64,000 nt of DNA from an uncultured Bacteroidota bacterium (GCA_942492555.1 CALOEX010000004.1:11875-75874), one strand, 5' to 3'. Shown: positions 17,931 through 19,527, counted from the first letter of the stretch. The notes: generated from the letters alone by a model not told the origin. Numbers and translations: made by a program.

Positions 17931-19184
17931 TTATGCCCCCTCTTTATTTTCTGATAAAACACGACGAAGCATAGCTTCTATTTGTGGCGTAATTAAATGT
18001 TCAATAGCTTCAGCATCATCATGAACATGTGTACTATCAATCTTTAAAAAACGCTCCAAATAAGCCTCCCAAAGCAAATGCCTTTCCATTATCCTCTTAC
18101 CATACCTACATCCATCCTTTGTCAACCGCCATTTATCCCTATCCACACAAAACGCAAGCCTTTTTGCACACAATTGTTCCATACCCTTACGTATTTTCCC
18201 AACAGGTATTTTTCTGTATTCTTTCAAAATTTTTAAATCAAGCACCTCCTCATACCCATCATCCAATTGCCCTAACTCAAAAAACATCTTCAATAAATTC
18301 TCCTGTAATATACGCCTACCATAAAGATACATATACCACTTCTTTGGAAAAAAACCCTCTCCAGGAGCAAATAAACAAGATATCAACAACAATAATACAG
18401 ATATCAATACAATACAAGGTCCTGTTGGCATCTCACCTATATAATAAGAGCAGTACATGCCCCCAACACCACTCACACAAGCAACAAAACTCGCAATAGC
18501 CAGCAATACCTTCAATTTTTTCGTCCAAAAAAAACCAGTTACTACAGGTGTAATCAACAGTGCTGTCACCAAAACAACACCCACTGTTTGTATGCCTAAA
18601 ACAATGGCCATTACAGTAATACAACGAAACAAAAAATCCAAACGATGCACAGGCATTCCAACCGTTATAGCAAACGACCTATCAAAACACAACAGTTGCC
18701 ACTCATGAAAAAAAACAAACAAAACCATCAACACCACTGCAGTCAAACAAGCAAAAACCACCACATCCTGCCTACTTAACGCCACAACATTACCCAACAA
18801 AAAATCTTTTAACCCAGACTGCTCCTCATACTCCTTATTATTTTGTACAAAAGACAACAACATAATCCCAAAACCAAAAAAGCTAGCCAATACCAGTGCC
18901 ATGGACGTATCCTTTTTAATTTTAGGGTTTGTATAAGACAAATAATCAATCAATAACATCGCCATCATACCACTCCCCAAAGCTCCAATCGACAAATAAA
19001 AAGCATTTTTTACATGCATAGCAATAAAAGCCAGAACAATACCTGGTAAAACAGCATGCGAGATAACATCCCCTGCAAGCTCTTTTTTTTGCAAGCTAGT
19101 AAAAGTGCCAACAATTGCTAAAATACTCATGGAAAGCATTACACCAATAGCTTGATAAAAAGGTATTACAACATTAAAATCCAT
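17931..19184 (-). CDS. Metal ABC transporter permease (ABC-3 / ZnuB-TroD-YtgC type) fused to a C-terminal DtxR-like repressor domain
   Basis: The N-terminal ~285 aa are a polytopic ABC-3-like permease. The C-terminal ~125 aa read ENLLKMFFELGQ...GMEQLCAKRLAFCVDRDKWRLTKDGCRYGKRIMERHLLWEAYLERFLKIDSTHVHDDAEAIEHLITPQIEAMLRRVL. This aligns by eye with the DtxR winged-helix plus dimerisation/metal-site region (RKHRLAERLL...VHDEACRWEH). Confidence 0.8.
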   Translation of the reverse strand: MDFNVVIPFYQAIGVMLSMSILAIVGTFTSLQKKELAGDVISHAVLPGIVLAFIAMHVKNAFYLSIGALGSGMMAMLLIDYLSYTNPKIKKDTSMALVLASFFGFGIMLLSFVQNNKEYEEQSGLKDFLLGNVVALSRQDVVVFACLTAVVLMVLFVFFHEWQLLCFDRSFAITVGMPVHRLDFLFRCITVMAIVLGIQTVGVVLVTALLITPVVTGFFWTKKLKVLLAIASFVACVSGVGGMYCSYYIGEMPTGPCIVLISVLLLLISCLFAPGEGFFPKKWYMYLYGRRILQENLLKMFFELGQLDDGYEEVLDLKILKEYRKIPVGKIRKGMEQLCAKRLAFCVDRDKWRLTKDGCRYGKRIMERHLLWEAYLERFLKIDSTHVHDDAEAIEHLITPQIEAMLRRVLSENKEGA

Positions 19185-19206
19185 TATGTAAACATTATAT
19201 ACTACA

Positions 19207-19214
19207 CAAATCTA
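19207..19214 (-). promoter_or_regulatory. Candidate -7 box (complement TAGATTTG = TAnnTTTG) for the permease-DtxR gene
   Basis: caaatcta on the plus strand, 23 nt upstream of the minus-strand ATG at 19184. Confidence 0.35.
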
Positions 19215-19527
19215 CAGCCACAAATCAAAAACACCACAAAGATCCCCAAAGAAAGACAATAAACATAAACAAAAGAGAACCCTAAAATTTATCCCACTAC
19301 CTATAAAAGCAACAGCTTCATTACGTGATCCATCATCAAAATCACCACACAGCCTTTTACAAAAAAATAGAAAACAAAAAAATTTCAACCAGTAGGTTTT
19401 TATTTATTTAAGCACCCACCCTTAGCCTTCAAATCAATATTATTTTCTTTCATATTTTATTTTGTCATTAAAAAATTGTATAATGTATTACATGATTTTA
19501 AAAAAATACCATAAAAAATAAAAATCA

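Follow-up and report, generated by a model that had tools for sequence, protein, structure and literature searches.

The 64-kb window analysed here, a single stretch of DNA from an uncultured Bacteroidota bacterium, is part of a genome of 949,510 bp in 15 contigs that is 92% complete (G000). It carries a gene whose product begins as an ABC-3 metal permease and continues into a DtxR-like tail (Table 1). The gene is a single unbroken open reading frame (ORF) of 417 amino acids (aa) that starts with ATG. Pfam placed ABC-3 (PF00950) over residues 15-272 (E 2.6e-59, profile positions 13-257 of 258) and Fe_dep_repr_C (PF02742) over residues 355-412 (E 1.3e-13, 51.2 bits versus a cut-off of 27). Thus the profile search for a DtxR module in residues ~290-417, which the sequence-only reading had named as decisive, found the metal-binding domain; the Pfam helix-turn-helix (HTH) model, PF01325, had no match on the tail at E <= 1. 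In NCBIfam only sub-threshold matches were obtained, to metal permeases (SloB, AztB, ZnuB) and to MntR/DtxR. When PDB sequences were searched with phmmer, the permease half matched the Mn permease PsaC (7kyp, E 3.1e-30), and residues 290-412 aligned to regulators of the DtxR/MntR family with both the winged-helix and the metal-binding parts covered (IdeR from T. acidophilum, 4o5v, residues 290-402; SloR, 294-405; ScaR, 295-410). Since PF01325 was silent, the DNA-binding half was recognised only through this pairwise search and through its fold.

The fold was examined in an AlphaFold2 model built on 51 homologues (mean pLDDT 91.4, pTM 0.84), which was compared with known structures using Foldseek. 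In the model the tail folds with the topology of DtxR, in which helices 1 to 3 are followed by a beta-hairpin wing, a long helix 4 and two more helices; predicted elements lie at H278-308, H317-323, H328-340, E344-348 and E351-354. The first of these is a continuous helix that begins in the junction and runs into helix 1 of the tail, tying the last transmembrane (TM) helix to it. The tail matched DNA-bound DtxR (1ddn, 1f5t) with a TM-score of 0.79-0.80 and MntR with about 0.68-0.75; DR2539 was also matched, in the range 0.68-0.80. The N-terminal half matched PsaC with a TM-score of 0.82-0.91 (0.87 for most chains) and a root mean square deviation of ~2 Å. A profile search alone would have missed this fold of the DNA-binding type. 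Judged by sequence match and model, the C-terminus corresponds to the first two DtxR/MntR domains, a winged HTH and a metal-binding and dimerisation domain, with no SH3 domain. These results bear out the earlier description of a complete ABC-3 permease joined to a DtxR-like module. An ABC importer of cluster A-I (Mn/Fe/Zn type) has the window protein as one of its two membrane subunits; the tail is encoded within a polytopic membrane protein, not as the free soluble dimeric DNA-binding protein typical of the DtxR/MntR family.

Table 1. The fused gene, its parts and the region upstream of it (window positions).
Feature	Position	Strand	Basis
Whole gene: 417-aa ABC-3 permease with DtxR-like tail (YtgC-YtgR orthologue)	17931..19184	-	ORF, stop codon included
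Permease domain, residues 15-272 (ABC-3, type II importer fold)	18369..19142	-	PF00950, PsaC sequence and fold match
Junction, residues 273-292: FAPGEG, then basic stretch	18309..18368	-	Model secondary structure, alignment
Winged-helix part of tail, residues 293-357	18114..18308	-	Model, fold match, invariant columns
Metal-binding/dimerisation part, residues 358-412	17949..18113	-	PF02742, ligand positions
Intergenic region, 343 bp, between the fused gene and the divergent NACHT/WD40 gene; presumed to hold the fused gene's promoter	19185..19527	.	Operator scan

To place the fusion among its relatives, a database of 5.8 billion proteins was searched and the best 120 matches were inspected. All of these had the same two-domain architecture, were 414-449 aa long and were 37-51% identical to the window protein. 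The named ones among them belonged to free-living Bacteroidota (Cytophagales, Chitinophagales, Saprospiraceae, Microscillaceae, Flavobacteriales, Marivirga and Parapedobacter). Matches that extended to query residue 400 or further were present in 11 genomes of an even sample of 200 Bacteroidota and, within the same order, in 10 of 16 genomes from outside the family of G000. In three further genomes of the 200 (G117, G193 and G197) the match broke off between query residues 364 and 368, the frames being 371-405 aa long; from the alignments, the tails of these three seem to stop at the winged helix and to lack the metal-binding half. A 2017 review credits Thompson et al. (2012) with finding orthologous permease-repressor fusions in 11 phyla (PMC5599777). 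The type of fusion is thus already known across phyla, and the case of G000 is mostly ordinary.

The sequence-only reading had drawn a parallel with the chlamydial YtgC-YtgR protein. Chlamydiota genomes were gathered by a 16S signature from published primers, and their identity was confirmed by the record titles. All 18 carried a fused, co-linear homologue (27-35% identity over query residues ~12-412), and in 16 of the 18 a second permease lay within a few hundred bases downstream. The junction aligned without indels across the Bacteroidota and Chlamydiota (FAPxxG, ~20 residues, then EN.LK), and the motifs EN.LK, RLHRLWELYL and VH..AE..EH..TP were common to both phyla. An end motif, DPH...IP, which is equivalent to the linker preceding SH3 in free regulators, was found in Chlamydiota and in five aligned Bacteroidota (Marivirga and G028 outside the family; G008, G014 and G021 inside it); the window protein is without it. 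Phylogenies were then built for each half separately. In the tree of the DtxR half (57 rows, with outgroups from the PDB alignments), the fused domains of both phyla were split from all stand-alone regulators (support 100/99), and a Bacteroidota fused clade (100/99) included the window protein. In the tree of the permease half (54 rows), the fused clade (100/99) stood apart from PsaC and from the second permeases; Chlamydiota formed a clade of their own (100/100), and the window protein lay in a Bacteroidota subclade (97/93). Both halves, then, nest the window protein in Bacteroidota with Chlamydiota apart. Since junction and motifs are shared, they point to one origin and not to convergence. 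By these comparisons the window protein is the Bacteroidota orthologue of chlamydial YtgC-YtgR, so that the suspected parallel is in fact orthology, and the fusion is shown by trees and alignments to be a single old invention common to Bacteroidota and Chlamydiota that came into G000 by vertical descent.

The chlamydial protein (YtgCR, CT069/CTL0325, of the C. trachomatis ytgABCD operon) is like the window protein in its two-part architecture, junction and motifs, in its lack of an SH3 domain and in being co-linear with it over ~400 residues. Each is also the only DtxR/Fur-type regulator detected in its organism. They differ in that their identity is low, in that YtgC-YtgR has the DPH...IP motif, and in that the window system is spread over three contigs instead of forming a ytgABCD operon; no operator was found in G000, and the WWW motif is of no relevance here. 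A metagenome contig from ENA (L016), which belongs to the closest database relatives and whose fused gene is 48% identical to that of the window, has genes for a TLC-type ATP/ADP translocase and a ferritin a few kb away. These neighbours fit an intracellular lifestyle of the window's clade.

We then considered whether the tail has the residues expected of a metal sensor. In 51 fused Bacteroidota proteins, the tail residues E295, N296, K299, L338, G358, H369, L371, W372, E373, H388, E395, H396 and T399 were invariant. The predicted ligand positions are H369, E373, H388, E392, E395 and H396, aligned to H76/E80/H95/E99/E102/H103 of SloR; E392, the equivalent of SloR E99, is present but not invariant among the 51. 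N296 is the equivalent of SloR D7, with Asn replacing the N-terminal Asp ligand, as it does in the stand-alone regulators of Bacteroidota. All six positions are unchanged in G000, in its sister genome G001, in L016, in G009 and G011, and in three Chlamydiota inspected; G003 has E373Q. The Glu at the position of DtxR Cys102 is a Mn-type pattern, but the chlamydial protein, reported to be iron-dependent, has Glu there too, so metal specificity cannot be read from the sequence. The tail is like the stand-alone DtxR/MntR regulators (DtxR, IdeR, MntR, SloR, ScaR, TroR, DR2539) in the fold of domains 1 and 2, in the ligand positions and in the Mn-type Glu. Unlike them, it is attached to a permease, has no SH3/FeoA domain, has an HTH that PF01325 misses and that evolves faster, and falls in a separate clade. 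In the 16 genomes that have both proteins, the mean pairwise identity of helix 1 was 69% in fused tails and 56% in free regulators, that of the metal-binding half was 60% and 65%, and that of the winged-helix core (residues 306-357) was 33% and 54%.

The fused gene was described in the sequence-only reading as orphaned from its transporter partners. At the locus this is correct: no gene for an ATPase or a binding protein adjoins it, and its neighbours are DUF3276 and YchF genes downstream and a divergent gene for a 1804-aa NACHT/WD40 protein upstream. In the genome as a whole it is not, because a search for ytgA- and ytgB-like genes found a ZnuA-family binding protein at C3:124939-125883, overlapping an ABC ATPase at C3:124178-124963, and a second ABC-3 permease lies at C14:119360-120229 (L186 2861-3730), alone between trigger factor and Sua5. 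The best NCBIfam names were of the Mn/Zn/Fe type (for the binding protein AztC, SloC and MntC; for the ATPase MntA), although none of the scores reached the curated cut-off. The importer is therefore complete, with its genes dispersed over three contigs; having its partners on C3 and C14, G000 has no operon of the ytgABCD type. Many relatives in the family still keep the first permease in an operon. The system resembles cluster A-I importers of the PsaBC/Tro/Znu type in its PsaC fold, ZnuA-family binding protein, MntA-like ATPase and second ABC-3 permease. PsaC, in contrast, has no cytoplasmic tail, whereas the window system has two different permeases, one of which is tailed. The second permease of G000 is intact, on a very long branch of the permease tree (1.68 versus a median of 0.33). 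Upstream of znuA, C3:126087-128974 (L185 4088-6975) holds a 78-aa ORF of the XRE HTH type, a repeat stretch of ~1.4 kb, and Cas2-like (116 aa) and Cas1-like ORFs. The ~1.4-kb stretch, whose translations repeat short motifs, is a probable CRISPR array, which would make this a CRISPR-Cas locus in a symbiont-type genome of 0.95 Mb.

In free-living Marivirga, the operon runs from a stand-alone DtxR regulator (PF01325, PF02742 and FeoA/SH3) through ZnuA, an ATPase, the fused permease and a cupredoxin to the second permease. Since this operon holds both, the ancestral Bacteroidota state was a free regulator together with a fused tail. The window's family has 48 genomes, ranging from 0.6 to 2.7 Mb. 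Both the free regulator and the fused tail were found in 20 of them. Six had the fused tail only (G000, its sister G001, G003, G009, G011 and G022), and 15, all in genus g16, had the free regulator only, the g16 permeases examined (G016, G023) being tail-less. In three genomes the whole system was lost. In the remaining four neither domain was detected; two of these are very incomplete assemblies and two, G051 and G053, belong to g16. Five of the fused-only genomes (G000, G001, G003, G009 and G011) make up, with contig L016, the 97/93 subclade of the permease tree, so these fused-only genomes share one loss of the free regulator. In G022 the order znuA, ATPase, fused permease is kept and an unrelated gene stands in the regulator's place; this is a second, independent loss. 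Genus g16, probably Cardinium, comprises 17 genomes, and its orthologous tail-less permease (G023:C1, L178 1445-2311; G016:C2, L179 56-1036) nests inside the fused clade, which indicates that the tail was lost secondarily. In g16 the free regulator shares its operon with a pair of ZnuA genes and the ATPase gene.

In G000 itself, tblastn with 16 regulators matched the fused tail alone, and no Fur-family gene was found. By these searches, the fused tail is the sole recognisable metal sensor of the DtxR or Fur type in this genome. A pseudogene remnant of a stand-alone dtxR was likewise discounted: the same tblastn search gave only the tail, and the 2.4 kb upstream of znuA hold the XRE-like and CRISPR/Cas-like content described above. 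In the fused-only clade, the identity of the metal-binding half relative to that of the permease was 1.26; where both regulators are present the ratio was 1.03 (p 0.03). In addition, all members of this reduced clade have kept a full winged helix with a basic third helix. Sequence comparison thus indicates that the tail of the fused-only clade is under purifying selection. The pattern of losses across the family shows that the tail can do its work without the free regulator, and we take the tail to be a functional element in its own right on this comparative evidence. That it works only by pairing with the free regulator is unlikely, since it stays constrained where the regulator is gone.

Loss of the free regulator was accompanied by loss of its sites. 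Of 17 relatives that have a free regulator, 15 had 14-bp cores of the form TTAR-N6-YTAA ahead of the first gene of the operon (for example TTTTAAGTTAGCCTAAAAC; the loci upstream of stand-alone dtxR were L018-L027, L029, L031, L037, L017 and L180). These sites were often arrayed, with two to four of them ~21 bp apart (four each in G006 and G020), and they resemble the classical DtxR box. TTAR-N6-YTAA is thus a clean candidate regulon marker for the Mn/Fe regulator of Bacteroidota. A weight matrix of this ancestral operator, made from 24 sites (training scores 12-22.5 bits), gave only 4.1 bits upstream of the fused gene, 4.2 bits upstream of znuA and 7.2 bits upstream of the second permease, the last being a degenerate copy with a 1-bp insertion. 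The search for DtxR-type operators suggested by the sequence-only reading was therefore negative at the three transporter promoters of G000. The ancestral operator was also absent upstream of znuA in the other fused-only genomes, so regulator and sites disappeared together. The best match of the matrix in the genome (19.0 bits, C4:105929-105948, L187 2930-2949) lies inside dnaJ, where it encodes the conserved J-domain residues YAILGVSKN, and was put down to chance. It serves as a warning that the operator motif can arise from conserved coding sequence.

New operators were no easier to recognise. A perfect 14-bp palindrome that occurs only once in the genome, ATGTTTCGAAACAT, lies at C3:125899-125912 (L185 3900-3913), where it covers the positions 16-29 bp ahead of the znuA start codon. 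No copy of it within three mismatches occurs at the other two transporter promoters of G000, and in five relatives, whose znuA promoters were compared, nothing resembling this palindrome turned up. Perfect 14-bp palindromes number 133 in G000 (about 0.8% per 60-bp window). With no counterparts at the other promoters or upstream of the relatives' znuA, and such palindromes not being rare, ATGTTTCGAAACAT is unproven as a new operator. A different palindrome, of 17 bp (AAGCATTAAGAATGCTT), stands at a similar distance from znuA in G011; the two could be lineage-specific operators or chance. A de novo motif search across the three transporter promoters gave nothing above dinucleotide shuffles (17/60 and 11/60), and a sigma-70 promoter scan, with 9 matches versus 8.1 expected, did not exceed shuffles either.

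Our overall explanation, to which we assign a probability of roughly 0.5, is that the window protein is a Bacteroidota orthologue of YtgC-YtgR, that is, an importer subunit with a metal-sensing tail. The tail would bind imported Mn2+ or Fe2+ through N296/E392/E395/H396 and H369/E373/H388 and, when loaded with metal, would exert negative feedback on uptake. It might be freed by proteolysis or act at the membrane, and the metal-loaded form would dimerise and repress transcription. The chlamydial orthologue is cleaved to a C-terminal product of 28-30 kDa that dimerises and represses in an iron- and operator-dependent manner (PMC5599777, PMC6504234, PMC7755916), and its proteolytic release is known only from immunoblots of the chlamydial protein (PMC5599777, PMC7755916). 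In Chlamydia the fused domain is reported to be the only regulator of the DtxR/Fur type (PMC6504234). By analogy with this demonstrated case, the repressor route may well hold in the window's lineage too, although we would put its chances slightly short of even. It fits a genome without any other DtxR/Fur regulator in which the full winged helix is kept.

Several observations weigh against a released repressor. PF01325 did not match the tail of the window protein, nor did it match fused tails in six-frame searches of the family genomes. The winged-helix core, at 33% identity, is weakly conserved compared with that of free regulators (54%), and the tail is connected with the last TM helix by a short predicted continuous helix. 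Of the two permeases just one is tailed, whereas binding to DNA by DtxR proteins requires a dimer. Repression is, moreover, already the task of a separate regulator with clear operators in most Bacteroidota. G051 (93% complete) and G053 (91%) have both permeases and no detected DtxR-type domain, which suggests that the sensor may not be indispensable; they also weaken the notion of strict complementarity, by which every genome with the transporter would keep at least one such domain. To these points are added the negative promoter results above: the lack of a motif common to the three transporter promoters and the isolation of ATGTTTCGAAACAT, both within G000 and among the znuA promoters of its relatives.

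The strongest alternative is that the tail is never released. It would be a cytoplasmic sensor held beneath the pump by its rigid helix, and loading with imported metal would throttle transport (trans-inhibition) without sequence-specific DNA binding. We regard this as a serious possibility, if one with clearly less than an even chance. Several of the same observations speak for it: most Bacteroidota have a separate DtxR regulator and conserved operators at the same operon; helix 1 (69%) and the metal-binding half (60%) are conserved while the winged-helix core is drifting (33%); the ancestral operator has been lost and no new motif is common to the three promoters; the model predicts a continuous helix, 278-308, between the last TM helix and the tail; and each heterodimeric transporter has a single tail. 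Moreover, some Bacteroidota tails seem to end after the winged helix, which is hard to square with a metal-dependent dimeric repressor. On the other side stand the chlamydial orthologue, for which cleavage and an iron- and operator-dependent repression of promoters have been reported, and the full winged helix with its basic third helix, kept in all members of the reduced clade. In addition, no ABC-3 importer is known to be gated by such a tail. Domains of trans-inhibition are found in other ABC importers, namely the C2 domain of MetNI and the TOBE domain of ModBC. The analogy is one of function only, in that a cytoplasmic domain attached to the transporter could bind the substrate and feed back on uptake. 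Those domains are on the ATPase and not the permease, are of unrelated fold and have a demonstrated role, whereas the role of the tail is hypothesis only. A broader form of this idea, which we hold still more tentatively, is that in Bacteroidota, and perhaps in all fusion lineages, the tail is a permanent importer-bound sensor that shuts the pump as cytoplasmic Mn or Fe rises, and is not a transcription factor.

That the tail is a decaying, functionless leftover, or the ORF an artefact of assembly or frameshift that joins two genes, is very unlikely. In the DtxR-half tree the tail is indeed on a long branch (1.31 versus a median of 0.26); it has lost the DPH...IP end motif of its free-living relatives, and genus g16 has lost the tail altogether. 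The permease half, however, is likewise long-branched. Every family-invariant residue is retained in the window tail, the metal-binding half shows, against its own permease half, a stronger conservation than it does where both regulators are present, and the model is confident through residue ~380. A frameshift, which the sequence-only reading had raised against itself, is ruled out by the same architecture in the sister genome G001 and in 120 of the 120 best database matches. Finally, the suggestion in that reading of convergence, or of an exchange of the fusion between intracellular Chlamydiota and the window's symbiont lineage, has next to no credibility. Both lineages are host-associated with reduced genomes, and neither has shown a DtxR/Fur-type regulator other than the fused domain. 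But fusions are reported from 11 phyla, the best matches are 37-51% identical and the named ones are from free-living Bacteroidota (versus 27-35% for Chlamydiota), the window protein falls among Bacteroidota and apart from Chlamydiota in the trees of both halves, the common junction and motifs point to one origin, and synteny with the ancestral operon is retained in relatives within the family.

The fusion on its own matters little, and the value of the case is comparative. What is new is modest: most relatives have a free DtxR regulator and its operators, and the clade of G000 has lost both and kept the tail. One reduced, symbiont-type family therefore displays three outcomes, in which both regulators are kept, or the free regulator and its operators are lost and the tail is kept (at least twice), or the tail is lost and the free regulator is kept (g16). 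If the tail is indeed a permanent sensor on the importer, the G000 clade would be a natural experiment showing that post-translational control is sufficient alone, the free regulator and operators having been lost with the tail intact. The family thus offers a clean set of genomes for asking what such tails do, which is a question also for the well-studied chlamydial YtgR.

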